Sequence record: ON470579.1
From: Escherichia phage vB_EcoM-606R2
DNA length: 42,743 bases
Strand: one strand, 5' to 3'
Positions 8,401-14,528 of this stretch are shown piece after piece. Under the pieces are notes generated by a model, which saw nothing but the letters and a program-made list of their open reading frames with translations, was not told the origin of the DNA and searched no databases. The first letter of the stretch is position 1; each line of letters begins with the position of its first letter. Made by a program: the position numbers and the translations under genes.

Positions 8401-8753
8401 TACGCCTCCGATGTAACAGTCGTTATTCCATAAAGAGTGTCGATTTCAGCGGAAAACATGACACGTCGGGTCGTGGTATCCAGCGTCGTATTGAAAGAGA
8501 GGATTGATTTAACGCCCTGCGTTTCGAGGATGCGCTTACGGATCGCCAGGTTGTAGGTTTCCGGCTTCTGCTTACCGAGTACGGACTGGATCCACGGAGT
8601 CCCCTCGGTGGTGTCGAGAAACCATTGCCCATACCACAATTCGAATCGCGTTTTTACCGCCTGCGCCACGGCCTCCGGTGAGTTAATCAGCCAGGTGTCA
8701 TCACCGCTGCCAAAGGTGTAATCGCCATCGGCGTCTTCACGTCTGTATCGCAT
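8400..8753 (-). CDS. baseplate protein, gpW / GP46-like
   Basis: 117-aa ORF immediately upstream of the J-like gene, with coupled start/stop overlap. Confidence 0.55.
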   Translation of the reverse strand: MRYRREDADGDYTFGSGDDTWLINSPEAVAQAVKTRFELWYGQWFLDTTEGTPWIQSVLGKQKPETYNLAIRKRILETQGVKSILSFNTTLDTTTRRVMFSAEIDTLYGITTVTSEA

Positions 8754-9505
8754 CAGTTTACCCCGTCGGTACTGCTTCCACCGCGCTGAACACCACCATG
8801 AGTGTGCGTATCATCGATTGGCTTGCCGTTAGCCTTCACGCTCCCCAAAAACTCAACAGCACCAGTGATTTTTGAAGCCACACCAGAAACCACAGACCCC
8901 ACCATGCCCCCCATCCAGGTTAACAGGCCATGAATGGTTACTTTCTCAGAAAAATCAGCCAGGGGGGCAACCACATCAAGCCCCCCCGGAGCGACAATTT
9001 TAATTTTCCTGGTATCAGGATTAAGCTCAAAATAGGTGCTGCCGTCGTCACTACGCAACTGTGTGGCACTGGTATTAATACCGCTAATCTTCCTAGCCTG
9101 CGACTGGGGACCGACAATACAAAACGCATCCGATAAATCATGCATTCTGTCATCAACCGTCTCCTGTATCCCGCCGCTCTGCCACCAGAAATCAATACAA
9201 CGATCGGCAAAAACGACAAGACACTCATCCCCAGCTTTTACCGGAAAAGTCAACGTACAGCCTCCGCCGCGCGGGAATACCACTGGCACATCCACCAGCA
9301 ATGGGTAATTTTTGGTAATGCGGTTACCGTCGTTATCCTTTTCAACTGACCGGATAGCTGGCTGCACAACCGCCGTCACCGCGTCAGGATCGAATGACTG
9401 AATAATGCCAGGCAAGGCGACACGGATCTGGTTCTTTGTTGTTTCCCGTTCAGATTTAAATGTTTCGGCAAGATCGCCACTGCGGGTCTGGTCAGTTACT
9501 GCCAT
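8753..9505 (-). CDS. baseplate spike / assembly protein V-like
   Basis: 250-aa ORF with a C-terminal HTHGG-type apex motif, in the position expected for a gpV-like protein. Confidence 0.55.
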   Translation of the reverse strand: MAVTDQTRSGDLAETFKSERETTKNQIRVALPGIIQSFDPDAVTAVVQPAIRSVEKDNDGNRITKNYPLLVDVPVVFPRGGGCTLTFPVKAGDECLVVFADRCIDFWWQSGGIQETVDDRMHDLSDAFCIVGPQSQARKISGINTSATQLRSDDGSTYFELNPDTRKIKIVAPGGLDVVAPLADFSEKVTIHGLLTWMGGMVGSVVSGVASKITGAVEFLGSVKANGKPIDDTHTHGGVQRGGSSTDGVN

Positions 9506-9520
9506 TGGTAGGCTCCAAAA

Positions 9521-9541
9521 AGCAAAAAACCCGCCGGGTGG
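9521..9541 (-). terminator. putative intrinsic terminator downstream of the moron pair
   Basis: On the minus strand, a short GC hairpin (ACCCGGCGGGT) is followed by TTTTTT, directly after the stop of the 170-aa ORF. Confidence 0.3.
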
Positions 9542-9565
9542 CAGGTTTTATCTCATGAAGAATGA

Positions 9566-10078
9566 CTATCGGTGGATAGTATTAAAGTATTCAGAAAGCT
9601 GATTATCAGTTATCAAACACAACTGCATCAAATAAATAGAGTATTTCAATAACTTTTCATCACGAACGGGGGCGGGACGTAAATACTTCCCGCCGTGAAA
9701 GAGATTATTTCTTATATACGGGATCTGCTTTAATGCTTCAGCAAGAGAATGAGGTTCGATTGGAGGTTTATCCTCCCACGAAAAATCATGCCTCTGCTGC
9801 TTCACAGGTTGCTGACATAGATACTCAACTGCCCTATCGACATTTCTATTTCCAGTAGGATATAAAGGCCGCGTATCATCAGTAGCGTAGCGGCTCCAGT
9901 CAGCACCGATTAGATAATTTCTACGATCAGTTTTTTTGAAATTAATTCTTTTTAACGCATATTCGAAACGCGAAAAATAATTAAAAAACCTTATAACAAG
10001 AGTAATATCAATTCCGCCGAGAAGTTCCTGAAAGTCAGGGTCTTGAAATGAATTCAAAGGATCATCATCAACTGTCAC
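9566..10078 (-). CDS. hypothetical protein with HEPN-like Rx4H motif (moron in baseplate operon)
   Basis: 170-aa AT-rich ORF containing IRNNLFHGG (R-x4-H). It interrupts the otherwise conserved baseplate gene order. Confidence 0.5.
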   Translation of the reverse strand: MTVDDDPLNSFQDPDFQELLGGIDITLVIRFFNYFSRFEYALKRINFKKTDRRNYLIGADWSRYATDDTRPLYPTGNRNVDRAVEYLCQQPVKQQRHDFSWEDKPPIEPHSLAEALKQIPYIRNNLFHGGKYLRPAPVRDEKLLKYSIYLMQLCLITDNQLSEYFNTIHR

Positions 10079-10410
10079 TTGCTGCTCACTTTTTTACACG
10101 GGAAAGATCCAATGATTTTCGGCGCGTCCATGCTGTTCTGCAGCAGCTGGACGTTCAGGAAAGCTTTTCCGTTACGTTTCACAAACTCAAAGCCGTAATT
10201 GTTACCATCACGGGAAGGCATCAGGCCCATGTCCATTTTCATGTTTGAATAGTCACCATCTTTTCCCAGAAATTTTATCTTCTGTGATGTGACAGTTTCA
10301 CCGTTAATAACAGTCATTCCGTCACCGGTCATCGTGTAGTTGCCGCACTGAATTGCAGCCATCGCCGGAGCAGTAACCATCATAACTAACGCCAAACATA
10401 ACCGTTTCAT
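10075..10410 (-). CDS. secreted/periplasmic hypothetical protein
   Basis: 111-aa ORF with a typical N-terminal signal peptide (MKRLCLALVMMVTAPAMA). Its stop overlaps the start of the HEPN-like ORF. Confidence 0.55.
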   Translation of the reverse strand: MKRLCLALVMMVTAPAMAAIQCGNYTMTGDGMTVINGETVTSQKIKFLGKDGDYSNMKMDMGLMPSRDGNNYGFEFVKRNGKAFLNVQLLQNSMDAPKIIGSFPCKKVSSK

Positions 10411-10829
10411 TAAAGCCCTCTTTCCCTCGCTGATGAGGAAACAAGATCCGCCGCGCCACGCGCTTCACACATCATATCCATGTACCACGCCTGGCCCCTT
10501 GTGTCGCCAGTGTACATAATCCCGCGCACAATATAAACGCCATCCGTTGCGATGCTGGCAGGCTGCGATGTGGTGCCGCTGAGCGTGATATTTCCGTCCG
10601 TGTTCTGGTCGGTGATCTGACCACCAGCCATCGCAATATCGTTGTTCGACAACGCGGTACGATAGACGGAAGCCTGATCCAGCTGAATGAGCCCGTTAAC
10701 CCGGATGTTCGGATTAATAAGCGCGCGGACGTTTACGCCGTTACCGATAGTCTGCTGCGGCATTCCAATAAGCCCGGTAGCGCTGTTGAGCACAATCGCT
10801 TCGTGAACATATTCGTTATTCACCACCAT
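10410..10829 (-). CDS. tail/baseplate protein
   Basis: 139-aa ORF within the tail operon; call rests on position only. Confidence 0.45.
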   Translation of the reverse strand: MVVNNEYVHEAIVLNSATGLIGMPQQTIGNGVNVRALINPNIRVNGLIQLDQASVYRTALSNNDIAMAGGQITDQNTDGNITLSGTTSQPASIATDGVYIVRGIMYTGDTRGQAWYMDMMCEARGAADLVSSSARERGL

Positions 10830-10835
10830 CTGGCG

Positions 10836-11474
10836 CTAACCGTCCACGAATTGCCATGTTGCGCCACATTGTCCGGCTACGTTATCCATTAGATGCCGCG
10901 TCATGCCAAAGAGTACCCGCCCCCGGGGGAATACAGTAGCAGGCATTTCAGGCGTCAGGCCTTCGGTCGCGCCTTTGGCTTCGAAGTCTTTCATCAGCGC
11001 ACGGTTCACATCAGCGACCGTGTAACCGGCAGCCAGCGTCTGTGAGGTTATACTGGTAGCAAAAGCCAGATCAGTATCTGCTGCCTGAATCAGGACGTAG
11101 GTATCAACCGGACTGTCTTTTCCTGTGACCGAGTAGCGAATTTCACCGCTGAAAATCAGTCCGTAGTTGCGGCCATCTCTCTGGCCCACGTCCGCCGCGT
11201 CAACTTCCCGCACGGTCCCTACGTCGCTTGCTGACACCTCCGGCGCGATACCGTCGTAACCGGCAATCAGACGCACTTTCGAAAACTCCTGCCCGGTAAT
11301 TCGGTTCACAGTATCTGCCGAGAGGTTATAAATTTTGATAGTCCCTACCCGGGACGCGCTGCTGATGTTGAACCAGTCGATCGTAAAGGTGACTTTGAAA
11401 TCACTTAGCTCAATTCCCTGACCGTTCCCGTCCACAAGCTGCAGCTCGAAATGTCTCATCCAGTTCTGTGACAT
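10836..11474 (-). CDS. tail/baseplate protein (hub-like position)
   Basis: 212-aa ORF within the tail operon; call rests on position only. Confidence 0.45.
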   Translation of the reverse strand: MSQNWMRHFELQLVDGNGQGIELSDFKVTFTIDWFNISSASRVGTIKIYNLSADTVNRITGQEFSKVRLIAGYDGIAPEVSASDVGTVREVDAADVGQRDGRNYGLIFSGEIRYSVTGKDSPVDTYVLIQAADTDLAFATSITSQTLAAGYTVADVNRALMKDFEAKGATEGLTPEMPATVFPRGRVLFGMTRHLMDNVAGQCGATWQFVDG

Positions 11475-11476
11475 GC

Positions 11477-11779
11477 TTACTCCGTTGATACCAGTAAATG
11501 GCTGCGACCGCCCAGGTCAGTTTTTGTGGGGTAATCCTGTGTGTTGTCATCACAGACCACCACCAGCTTAAAACCAAGCCCCATACAGGCGTACTGCGCC
11601 AGCAGGTCAGCACCAGTGACGAGAGGAATACCGGAGATTACCGGCTCCCCTCTGTCGTTCTGCAGGTCCATAATCCAGTACAGATCGCGCCATATGATGC
11701 TAATCCGCCAGGTGACACCACCCAGGACGATGCTGAACTGCTGGTTGTCCGCTGTCAGCGGAATTTCCTGAATTGTCAT
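11477..11779 (-). CDS. tail protein
   Basis: 100-aa ORF, translationally coupled to its neighbours. Confidence 0.45.
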   Translation of the reverse strand: MTIQEIPLTADNQQFSIVLGGVTWRISIIWRDLYWIMDLQNDRGEPVISGIPLVTGADLLAQYACMGLGFKLVVVCDDNTQDYPTKTDLGGRSHLLVSTE

Positions 11780-12366
11780 TAGCCGCCCCCCAGTAATGAC
11801 GCCACGTTACCCGTGATGCTTTTCAGCAGTGAAGTATCTGGAGGCTTTGTGGTTTTGTTGCCGCTGTTCTGTACCGCCGACGTGCTGGCCCCTTCCTTCA
11901 TGTTGGTTTTATCCGCGACGGTAATCTGCTGTGTCCGGGAGATAATGACCTCCCTCAGGGTGAGGACGGCGGACAGGACGTTTTCGGTTGTCTTGTCCGT
12001 CGTCACTTCCAGCGCCCGGATCAACATGTTGCTGTACAGCCGTTTACCGGTTACCACATCGAAGGGGATACGGCTTTCCTGCAGACCCAGTAGCTCCTGA
12101 TACGTCTGCTGAGGACTCAGGCCGAGCAGGCTGGTAGCCGTCAGGTTACTGGCAAAATCCAGCAATGCGCCGCCACCGGCGAAACCAACCTCCATCACCA
12201 CTTCTGACGGTTTTTTATAGGCATGATCAGCGACAGCGGCCCCGACCTCTACCGGATGCTCTGTTATTTCAAGCATATCTGTATGCTTCTCTGAAATAAC
12301 AACACTGGGAACAATCATTCCTATTTTTCTGCTCTGCTGATGAAAAAGTGTAGAGAGAATATCCAC
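11779..12366 (-). CDS. tail protein downstream of tape measure
   Basis: 195-aa ORF; start/stop overlap with the tape measure gene. Confidence 0.45.
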   Translation of the reverse strand: MDILSTLFHQQSRKIGMIVPSVVISEKHTDMLEITEHPVEVGAAVADHAYKKPSEVVMEVGFAGGGALLDFASNLTATSLLGLSPQQTYQELLGLQESRIPFDVVTGKRLYSNMLIRALEVTTDKTTENVLSAVLTLREVIISRTQQITVADKTNMKEGASTSAVQNSGNKTTKPPDTSLLKSITGNVASLLGGG

Positions 12367-14351
12367 TAACCCACCCTCACCTGATTACTTCGCATGACCT
12401 GAGCATTTGCAGACTGTTGCCGACGTGCAACCTCATTACCGACAGCGTGCGGATCTCCGCCACCGTAAATGTGGTAGGTATTTTGCTGGTTAACCTCTGT
12501 CACTTTGCCACTAATTCCCGCCACGGCAGCCTTATTAATCAGCTCTCGAGAATAGATATTTCTTCCATTCTCATGCTGGATAATGCTGCTCATCAATGCT
12601 GACATGGTTTGCGGATCGCTCATATTCAGGGCAGCCCGGGGATCCACTCCCAGTCGTTGCGATACAGCCCTGATATACGCTGTTGTGTTGTTATTATCAG
12701 ACGCAGGTGCCCAGGTAGAGATAATTTTCTCCACACTGTTTATTCCCCGTCCGGCGTACAGCATTAACTGACGAGCAAGAGCCCGTAATCCATCAAAGGC
12801 AGTTTCAAATCTGGCAAATCGCCCGCCCGGGCGTTCAAGAGAAGCCCCTGCCTGACCAGCAAAATTAAGGTTTCCCGGATTGTTATTCCGTTCTCCTCGT
12901 TTCGTAGCCTGTGCATATTGTTCCGGCTCAGCACCTGGAATATCTGACTGAATATTTGCGCCTTTTACGGTATGAGGATTACGACCAAAATCGGTATCAA
13001 TGCCAAGCCAGCGCAATGAATCTCCAATATTTTGTTTCGTGTAATCCCAGGATGACTTCGCACTGGCACCAATATTTTCGCGATCAGAGTACAAATACGC
13101 AGCATAAGCCATCCAGCCTTTTAACCACGGCGGGACCGGCAAACCTGATATTTTCCCGAAAGCCCCCAGAACCCTGGATACCCAGACACCCGCGATGAAT
13201 GTACCAAGGATTTCCAGTGCATTTTGCCAGCCGCCAACACCATCTTTTAGTTCCAGAAGGTGATCACGAAGCCAGGTGATCGCATCCTTCGCTTTATCTA
13301 TTGCCGGTTGCCATTTTTCCCAGTCGATAAGACTGTTACCGCCTTCTTTCCATGTTTTGTAGTCTTCCCACAAGAGACCGAGAGCCACGATCAGACCGGT
13401 AATCAGCCCTATAGGTGACATCCAGAAAGTAGAGTTAAGTATCCGCATGGCGACAACCAGACCGCCGATAACCTCTATCAGGGTTTTCGTTTCGGCATCC
13501 AGTTTCCCCCACCACTCGATGATATCTCCGACACCATCGACTATCCGAAATGCTACCCGCCCGACTATCTCACCCAGCCAGAGGATCCCCTTTATGACCT
13601 TTGTGATGGTGACTTCAATTTTGGGAAAATTTTCAATTATCTTTTTGCGCAGGTTATCAATCTGCCCCGCCAGTCCGTCCGCAAGATTCGATCCGATTTT
13701 GTCCCGCGCCATCCTGGCCATTTCACCGAGCGATTTCAGCGAGGTCATAAACCGGTTTGACGATAAGGCAGCCTGATCGGCATTAAATCCGATCGCTTTC
13801 ACCATTTCTGAATACTGAGCGCTGAACTGCCCCACTCCGCGACGCATAGCCATCAGGGTATTTTCGTCAATGCCCAGCATCTGCGCATACTGGTTAGCCC
13901 GGTAATACGGCATGCTGCTGAGTTTCTGTCCAACGCCCGTAAAGATAGCAGCCATGTCACGCATGTTACCGCTGGCATCACGGGTCTGTACGCCCAGGCG
14001 ATTCAGAAAGCCTTCTGCTCCGGGATTGTTACGAATAAACCGGGAGAGGCTTTCCAGAGAAGATCGCGCAGCGTCCACACTGCCGCCAACCTGCGAAACC
14101 GCATAGCCAATAGACTGAATTCCCTGGACCGTCGCGCCGGTGCGCTGTGACGCCCAGTAAAGATTATCCAGGCCGGAGGCGATCTTAGCCGTGAAGGCCA
14201 CCACGGACAGCGCAGCCCCTTCAACAGCCAGCCCCATTTTGATGACATTTGCAGTTGTACCGGCGAGGACAGAACCGAACTTTTTCGCTCCTGCATCATC
14301 CACACGGAAGCCAAGCGAGACGAGGAAATCTTTAATAGTTTCAGCGTTCAT
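12366..14351 (-). CDS. tail tape measure protein
   Basis: The largest tail ORF (track start is a TTG at 14372; likely start is the ATG at 14351 after GGAGAGAGG). The protein is helical and Ala/Gly-rich with central hydrophobic segments, and lies directly after the chaperone frameshift pair. Confidence 0.75.
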   Translation of the reverse strand: MNAETIKDFLVSLGFRVDDAGAKKFGSVLAGTTANVIKMGLAVEGAALSVVAFTAKIASGLDNLYWASQRTGATVQGIQSIGYAVSQVGGSVDAARSSLESLSRFIRNNPGAEGFLNRLGVQTRDASGNMRDMAAIFTGVGQKLSSMPYYRANQYAQMLGIDENTLMAMRRGVGQFSAQYSEMVKAIGFNADQAALSSNRFMTSLKSLGEMARMARDKIGSNLADGLAGQIDNLRKKIIENFPKIEVTITKVIKGILWLGEIVGRVAFRIVDGVGDIIEWWGKLDAETKTLIEVIGGLVVAMRILNSTFWMSPIGLITGLIVALGLLWEDYKTWKEGGNSLIDWEKWQPAIDKAKDAITWLRDHLLELKDGVGGWQNALEILGTFIAGVWVSRVLGAFGKISGLPVPPWLKGWMAYAAYLYSDRENIGASAKSSWDYTKQNIGDSLRWLGIDTDFGRNPHTVKGANIQSDIPGAEPEQYAQATKRGERNNNPGNLNFAGQAGASLERPGGRFARFETAFDGLRALARQLMLYAGRGINSVEKIISTWAPASDNNNTTAYIRAVSQRLGVDPRAALNMSDPQTMSALMSSIIQHENGRNIYSRELINKAAVAGISGKVTEVNQQNTYHIYGGGDPHAVGNEVARRQQSANAQVMRSNQVRVG

Positions 14352-14528
14352 TATCCTCTCTCCATTTCTCAATGCGTCGCTGGTTATCCGCTTTTACCGC
14401 CAGATGGTCATTCAAGAGAGCAATGTCATACAAATCGACAGAGCCATCTTTAAGTGCTGTATAAGGAATTAACCCGGCGTCAACCGGATTGAGAAGGTAG
14501 GACAGCCCGTCCGGCAGGCTGTTAAACG

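Follow-up and report, generated by a model that had tools for sequence, protein, structure and literature searches.

The stretch of DNA analysed here, called the window in the following, comprises 42,743 nucleotides (nt) of the Escherichia phage vB_EcoM-606R2 (sequence record ON470579.1), a temperate myovirus whose relatives include Salmonella phage SEN34 (Brunovirus), Yersinia phage YP3 and Klebsiella phage Mulock. In its tail operon the gene of the baseplate hub (10410-11474, matching the baseplate hub group phrog_196) and the gene of the central spike (8753-9505, with a PF18352 N-terminal domain and the GpV apex motif, Pfam E-value 5e-44) enclose a slot with two small genes, and these, like all features given with window coordinates, lie on the minus strand. 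The first small gene (10075-10410; phrog_3443, named 'STY1065/STY2022 family phage-derived protein' in RefSeq) encodes an exported protein of 111 amino acids (aa), the second (9566-10078) encodes a stand-alone HEPN-like protein of 170 aa, and an intrinsic terminator follows (9516-9549). The hub-to-spike slot is a conserved hotspot for accessory 'moron' genes in SEN34-like, Brunovirus-type temperate myoviruses and the 170-aa gene is its cargo, encoding probably, if by no means surely, a stand-alone HEPN-family protein that acts as single-protein effector in conflict or defence, of the abortive-infection type.

Translation is coupled from the hub gene to the 111-aa gene and on to the 170-aa gene: hub and 111-aa gene are joined by a TAATG overlap, and the GTG start codon of the 170-aa gene lies within a GTGA overlapping the stop of the 111-aa gene by 4 nt. 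The G+C content (GC) is 0.384 in the 170-aa gene, with 0.339 at third codon positions (GC3), and 0.452 in the 111-aa gene, compared to 0.51-0.54 in the flanking tail genes and, for GC3, to about 0.6 in the genes of hub, plug and sheath initiator. The terminator consists of a G+C-rich hairpin of 10 base pairs (bp) followed by a T-run, together at 9526-9549 (AAAACCTGCC-ACCC-GGCGGGTTTT and then the T-run), and folding it together with its flanks (9512-9566) gives a free energy of -19.3 kcal/mol with a z-score of -3.1 compared to shuffled sequences. It marks the right border of the hotspot, with the stop codon of the 170-aa gene 16 nt away on one side and the ribosome binding site of the spike gene (GGAG) directly 3' on the other. 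An annotation made initially from the sequence of the window had reported two overlapping AT-rich genes at this place, a minus-strand hairpin with T-run ahead of the next baseplate gene and a signal peptide on the 111-aa product, and all three were confirmed, the last by inspection of the n, h and c regions and the AXA site.

The borders of the exchangeable part were obtained by comparing 16 slots, i.e., the window and 15 relatives comprising E. coli prophages, SEN34, YP3 and Mulock. The window and the relatives are homologous until just past the FPCKK codons of the 111-aa gene, and again from the terminator stem onwards. The conserved flanks and these breakpoints define an exchangeable cargo segment of about 540 bp, located at approximately 9550-10089, whereas the 111-aa gene and the terminator belong to the phage backbone. 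In 13 of the 15 relatives, SEN34, YP3 and Mulock among them, the gene next to the hub is a homolog of the 111-aa gene (53-99% identity), independently of what is encoded downstream. The terminator is kept in 14 of the 15 with any cargo, its stem being constant and its loop reading ACCC, TTCG, ATCC, ACTT, ACCA or GGAT. An assignment of the terminator to the inserted genes was therefore rejected, as it is conserved with every cargo.

In the relatives the slot has a length of 352-1391 bp and the contents are unrelated, amounting to at least eight types of cargo. These include a 257-aa protein, a 190-aa protein together with a YafO toxin (E-value 4e-17), DUF4282 and DUF2335 proteins and small membrane proteins. 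Further matches are to a PF05168-like HEPN domain (E-value 0.001), to HEPN_IX (E-value 3e-4) and to a PycTM-like domain (E-value 9e-4), and most of the cargo is unmatched. The 170-aa gene is an infrequent occupant: the tail module was found in 352 of 5,426 complete E. coli genomes (about 6%), of which 25 encode the 170-aa gene, leaving 327 of the 352 without it. In prophages of Enterobacter and Pantoea the same slot is filled by homologs with 49-54% identity. In the slot of BH100 the gene for the 257-aa protein is the sole annotated one and is followed by about 440 nt free of genes. Two-gene cassettes are present in several sister slots, composed of a gene for a TPR-like protein of 243-258 aa and then one for a small HEPN protein of 123-142 aa (loci L006, 1116-2244; L008, 1117-2270; L012, 1119-2271; L016, 854-2013), and the HEPN proteins of these cassettes are PF05168-like and contain RNEADY or a similar sequence in place of Rx4H.

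These comparisons also bear on the proposal that the secreted 111-aa protein and the HEPN-like 170-aa protein form a functional two-gene system inserted together, as the initial annotation had it. The 4-nt overlap of the genes, their GC below that of the neighbours and their co-occurrence in three prophages are compatible with such a pair. However, at least eight unrelated cargos are seen downstream of the 111-aa gene, and in 16 loci the 170-aa family is present without it. Homology breaks off within the last codons of this gene, and by prediction the two proteins reside in different compartments of the cell. Among 34 fetched loci, a 111-aa homolog without a 170-aa homolog was found in 13 and the reverse in 16, and both families are together in three distinct prophages only, namely this phage and loci L017 and L018, all of them SEN34-like slots (counted once, as the window and its GenBank record L005 do not differ in sequence). 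The pair reading is thus largely refuted already and we regard it as highly improbable. Of the insertion into the baseplate operon that had been proposed, the part containing the 170-aa gene stands and the part containing the 111-aa gene does not. A consistent presence of homologs in related tail modules, which the initial annotation had named as a refuting finding, was seen with the 111-aa gene only and not with the 170-aa gene.

The assignment of the 170-aa protein to HEPN starts from its motifs. HEPN domains share an Rx4-6H motif, in which the arginine is followed by a polar residue (N, D or H), and a second acidic residue in an Ex3[KR] motif (PMC3710099). Both hallmarks, as R-N-x3-H and E-x3-K, are present in the 170-aa family, in the window protein as R123-N-N-L-F-H128-G-G-K131 with a polar N after R (codons at 9686-9712) and as E39-Y-A-L-K43 within FSRFEYALK on helix 1 (codons at 9950-9964). 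The IRNNLFHGG sequence noticed initially (residues 122-130) is present, although it is positioned at 72-75% of the length of the protein and not at its extreme C-terminus. As the protein is rich in arginine, the bare Rx4H motif turns up in 29% of shuffled versions and R[NDH]x3H in 5%; the bare motif is therefore not significant, and what lends it weight is solely its invariance within the family. In an alignment of 148 diverse members E39, R123, H128 and G129 are conserved in 148 of 148, N124, K131 and R139 in 147 and K43 in 146, and the family signature consists of FSRFEYALK, PPxxQ, W101, RNNLFHGGK and the invariant R139.

This conservation argues against the explanation that the protein is a catalytically inert HEPN-like helical protein, i.e., an adaptor binding a ligand or protein, or an inhibitor such as an anti-defence protein. 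Some HEPN domains are indeed non-catalytic binding modules (PMC3710099) and the similarity to active HEPN ribonucleases (RNases) in sequence and structure is weak. However, the R, N, H and E of the catalytic motifs are found in 147-148 of 148 members from many phyla, a pattern expected of an active site, and inactive HEPN clades characteristically lose Rx4-6H (PMC3710099), so that we consider an inert protein very unlikely.

The family is large. A word-indexed search identified 27 relatives of the 170-aa protein, an exhaustive profile search resulted in 2,392 clusters at 50% identity with E-values of at most 0.001, 606 of them at most 1e-30, and a second indexed search yielded more than 5,300 clusters at 90% identity, every one of which is named 'hypothetical' and none of which has a Pfam domain. 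Nearly all members from the profile search are stand-alone proteins of 155-180 aa, and the family spans many bacterial phyla. Rare fusions were observed (P0047 and P0055), in which an N-terminal DUF6884 is joined to a C-terminal HEPN-like domain; DUF6884 has the YaaA-like 'cantaloupe' fold and is proposed to be a base-flipping binder of nucleic acids.

An AlphaFold2 model of the 170-aa protein calculated with the family alignment is confident (predicted local distance difference test, pLDDT, 91.4; predicted template modelling score, pTM, 0.85). The modelled protein is all-alpha except for a small hairpin, with long helices formed by residues 25-44, 78-89, 112-127 and 137-157 and the hairpin (48-59) between helices 1 and 2, and the predicted fold is HEPN-like, being judged to resemble solved HEPN domains. 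In a profile search of the PDB with the family only constructs of Csx1-Crn2 were matched (E-values 0.03-0.05), and in this alignment R123, N124 and H128 fall onto the catalytic R401, N402 and H406, which were shown by structure to form the composite RNase site of Csx1-Crn2 (PMC11317161). Using the family consensus, the best Pfam match is HEPN_Apea (E-value 0.011; 16.6 bits compared to a cut-off of 24.4) and the best PADLOC matches are Csx1/Csm6 models with CARF and HEPN domains (E-values 0.002-0.04). Weak Pfam matches recurring among the 148 members include Abi_2, HEPN_Apea and HEPN_Swt1, with Abi_2 (PF07751) matching 4 of the 148 below its gathering score (best E-value 0.027).

Taken together, the 170-aa protein very probably belongs to the HEPN superfamily. 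Membership in any named HEPN family is unsupported, as every match stays below threshold. In the scans of the window proteins the 170-aa protein gave no match to Pfam, NCBIfam or PADLOC, Abi_2 included, and in PHROGs it matches the uncharacterised group phrog_19013 and nothing else. The family is thus predicted to constitute a large, uncurated branch of the HEPN superfamily that is not represented in Pfam, NCBIfam or PADLOC. Literature searches returned nothing for the name of the phage or for the motif RNNLFH and one irrelevant match for STY1065, and RNNLFH does not occur in one supplement of the HEPN survey (PMC3710099).

The genomic surroundings of the homologs give further hints on function. 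In metagenomic and genomic contigs the 170-aa gene is always solitary. Neighbours of distant homologs encode AbiV, PDC-S11 (E-value 1e-135), PDC-S48, a ThsB-like TIR protein, SIR2, a STAND ATPase, HNH proteins, integrases and transposases. In an unrelated Klebsiella phage a homolog with 30% identity is encoded in the tail region. In two loci (L019, 4101-7270; L020, 1546-4715) an apparent operon encodes a helix-turn-helix (HTH) protein (XRE-type, CapH-like), an M78 peptidase (CapP, E-value 2e-32), a 170-aa homolog with 38% identity, PnuC, which is a transporter of nicotinamide mononucleotide and nicotinamide riboside, and a NadR-like protein composed of CTP_transf_like and AAA_28. The arrangement of the HTH and peptidase genes directly upstream of the homolog resembles the CapH and CapP module, which turns on immune operons upon DNA damage (bioRxiv 10.1101/2022.04.27.489752; PMC13228613). 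The apparent operon would thus connect a HEPN gene to genes of NAD salvage under a switch responding to DNA damage. Homologs are also the sole unexplained accessory gene on plasmids of 4.9-6.1 kb from Citrobacter, Enterobacter and Klebsiella, with no adjacent partner; as examples, those with 27-28% identity on pF3517-3 (L032, 294-767) and in L034 (684-1151), on enterobacterial plasmids of 4.9-5.5 kb, adjoin mobilisation genes and CcdAB.

No conserved partner gene was found in about 13 distinct contexts outside the window (16 loci). This argues against a classical toxin-antitoxin pair and fits a single effector controlled via its expression or by a trigger. The protein might still be the toxin of an addiction module stabilising the prophage or plasmid, with a small RNA, the product of an overlapping small open reading frame or a host factor as antitoxin. 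Against this stand the lack of a conserved neighbour in any context, the lack of a gene for an MNT nucleotidyltransferase, the absence of the tyrosine two residues after H128 that the motif RX4HXY would demand and the mere 16 nt from stop codon to terminator. Moreover, positions 9300-10700 contain no Rfam match at an E-value of 1 or below and no tandem or long repeats; an RNA antitoxin or another structured RNA in this region was by these searches ruled out as far as possible. We therefore judge an addiction module to be improbable.

HEPN enzymes are metal-independent RNases, whose Rx4-6H active site is normally formed across a dimer. For the 170-aa protein acting as conflict or defence effector the following course is conceivable. 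Before a trigger arrives, for example infection or DNA damage, it would lack activity or be expressed at a low level. By analogy to characterised HEPN enzymes, two copies would then bring their RNxxxH motifs together and R123 and H128 would cleave RNA without metal, which would arrest the infected cell or stop a competing phage from growing. That the protein is an RNase, dimerises, responds to a trigger, is expressed in the lysogen and acts against phages is what we infer here.

Several observations weigh against this effector role and the assignment behind it. No curated HEPN or defence model was matched over threshold, neither by the 170-aa protein nor by the family consensus, and a Foldseek search of the PDB with the 170-aa model yielded nothing below an E-value of 2.7. 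Comparison of the family with the PF05168-like HEPN cargo of the sister prophages by hhalign resulted in a probability of 0.5%, so that the two HEPN types of the hub-to-spike slot are not detectably related by sequence. The defence context stems from about nine sampled loci. Furthermore, the 170-aa gene lacks an intergenic region of its own, its translation is coupled to that of late tail genes and a promoter search gave nothing convincing, with 6 promoter-like sites compared to 3.4 +/- 2.0 expected. The gene may thus be expressed late in lytic growth only, which would fit an RNase serving the phage better than defence of the lysogen.

Such a late RNase, made from the late tail operon, would degrade RNA of the host or of competitors, process phage mRNA or counter a host defence. 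The TAATG and GTGA coupling of the hub, 111-aa and 170-aa genes, the lack of an intergenic promoter region and of an excess of promoter-like sites and the same translational coupling in the Enterobacter homolog are in line with it, as is the Q-type antiterminator annotated in the GenBank record, which would read through the terminator. However, the gene is dispensable, as 327 of the 352 related E. coli prophages are without it, its homologs are mostly non-phage and are located in defence islands and on small plasmids, and the conserved terminator straight after the slot suggests that the transcript is not antiterminated. In a Q-antiterminated late transcript this terminator would be without obvious function, suggesting that a separate, non-antiterminated transcript exists. 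Overall, a late RNase appears unlikely, if less so than an addiction module.

Beyond the single-protein effector in this phage, a broader interpretation can be put forward tentatively, at somewhat short of an even chance. The 170-aa family might represent an uncatalogued single-gene HEPN abortive-infection system with at least 2,392 clusters, some members of which are apparently under DNA-damage control of the CapH/CapP type, and the hub-to-spike slot might be a defence hotspot comparable to those of P2 and P4, with the other cargos (the TPR and HEPN cassettes and several small membrane proteins) and the exported protein after the hub also taking part in conflict between phages. Both the presence of HEPN genes on mobile elements and the exchange of morons in late operons of prophages are already known (PMC3710099, PMC9122126, PMC10884400). 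What is new is the large HEPN-like family, absent from the curated libraries searched, and an apparently undescribed hotspot, as no description of a hub-to-spike hotspot in SEN34-like phages was found in the literature search.

If the 170-aa protein is an active, phage-restricting RNase, a widespread and very compact (about 165 aa) single-gene system would be added to the catalogue of defence systems. It would also provide a simple model of the way in which a stand-alone HEPN enzyme can be restrained in the absence of an antitoxin. If it is not active in this way, the locus would reflect ordinary turnover of morons in a tail operon. The hotspot itself, which has sharp borders and is present also in phages of Salmonella, Klebsiella, Yersinia, Enterobacter and Pantoea, is a practical site to mine for accessory genes.

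The 111-aa protein is predicted to be periplasmic and belongs, as a conserved component in its own right, to the phage backbone. Its N-terminus (MKRLCLALVMMVTAPAMA followed by A, i.e., MKR-LCLALVMMVTAP-AMA followed by A) displays a basic n region, a hydrophobic h region and a c region, and on inspection the signal peptide comprises residues 1-18 (10357-10410), with predicted cleavage between AMA and the following A. The N-terminus varies yet stays hydrophobic in 30 of 30 aligned homologs, and C22 and C105 in the mature part are invariant. The family encompasses about 410 clusters and is restricted to Enterobacterales. An AlphaFold2 model of moderate confidence (pLDDT 77) is beta-rich with an N-terminal helix formed by residues 2-23, and a structural search with it gave no informative neighbour. 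A match to DUF4488 was dismissed as chance, as it falls onto the signal peptide.

In all relatives compared, the gene following the hub is one for an exported protein, either of the 111-aa family or a substitute, i.e., an unrelated signal-peptide protein of 153 aa (L012, 2445-2906) or a 241-aa lipoprotein with the lipobox LTSC (L015, 1119-1844). This suggests a functionally constrained 'slot A' after the hub beside a freely variable 'slot B'. In SEN34 (L001, 2997-3332) and in an Enterobacter contig (L017, 4660-4995) the homolog is called with a length of 77 aa only. In tblastn 116 residues are aligned in one frame, and the signal-peptide part was probably missed through the choice of the start codon. 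Llp of phage T5 and Cor of phi80 and N15 are phage-encoded exported proteins that mediate superinfection exclusion or receptor masking. Like them the 111-aa protein is small, exported and encoded among the tail genes of a temperate phage, and it is a reasonable guess that it may play a role in one of these processes.

Upstream of the hub gene the tail operon contains the genes of the plug (11477-11779), of a Dit-like protein (11779-12366) and of the tape measure (12366-14372), and past the spike gene those of the sheath initiator, baseplate J and wedge proteins follow on the minus strand. The record ON470588 (Escherichia phage vB_EcoM-611R5) is, after reverse-complementing, identical to the window at 100% over the tested 2.8 kb. 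In the same phage an annotated TIR-like domain protein (L005, i.e., ON470588, 3105-3866) is encoded next to the DNA polymerase gene and is another candidate for a defence or counter-defence moron. At 10836-10838 the hub gene is interrupted in frame by an amber codon, generated by exchange of CAG to TAG at codon 213 (Gln213). In seven of seven relatives checked this codon encodes Gln in a single hub of 354 aa, and the same amber allele is present in E. coli chromosomes that are 100% identical across the region. The prophage may therefore be tail-defective unless the amber codon is suppressed; a supE-type suppressor would put Gln back at this position.

With regard to known systems, the hub-to-spike slot resembles prophage defence hotspots and morons, namely the hotspots of P2 and P4 (Rousset et al., 2022; PMC9122126) and late-operon morons such as Tab of JBD26 and gp15 of HK97 (PMC10884400), in its conserved flanks and its exchangeable cargo of atypical GC including toxin and defence-type genes, and in that the cargo is located within a late structural operon and ends in a terminator. 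Unlike these, it belongs to the SEN34-like lineage, is positioned between hub and spike and has no evident promoter dedicated to the cargo. The TPR and HEPN cassettes of the sister prophages resemble the TPR-linked HEPN operons described by Anantharaman et al.

From the HepT/MNT toxin-antitoxin systems of type II/VII (PDB 7ae2, 8xdj and 5yep) the 170-aa gene differs in having a gene for an exported protein and a terminator as neighbours rather than an MNT gene, and its product in the motif, which is RNNLFHGG and not RX4HXY. The HEPN domains of Csx1/Csm6 are the best sequence-profile match of the family in both PDB and PADLOC, albeit marginal (E-values 0.002-0.05), and in Csx1-Crn2 (PDB 8y7f; PMC11317161) RNxxxHGG is in register and followed likewise by a loop and a long helix. 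In contrast to Csx1/Csm6, the 170-aa protein has no domain besides the HEPN-like one, lacking a CARF or HTH sensor, and is encoded in a phage tail operon outside a CRISPR context. With AbiD/AbiF (Abi_2), AbiU2, AbiV and the ApeA-like HEPN proteins it has in common Rx4H with N after R, Ex3K located in helix 1 and a domain of about 150 aa forming a helical bundle, and its gene is likewise stand-alone and found on mobile elements and in defence islands. What sets the 170-aa family apart from these abortive-infection families is its own invariant signature and the beta-hairpin inserted between helices 1 and 2.

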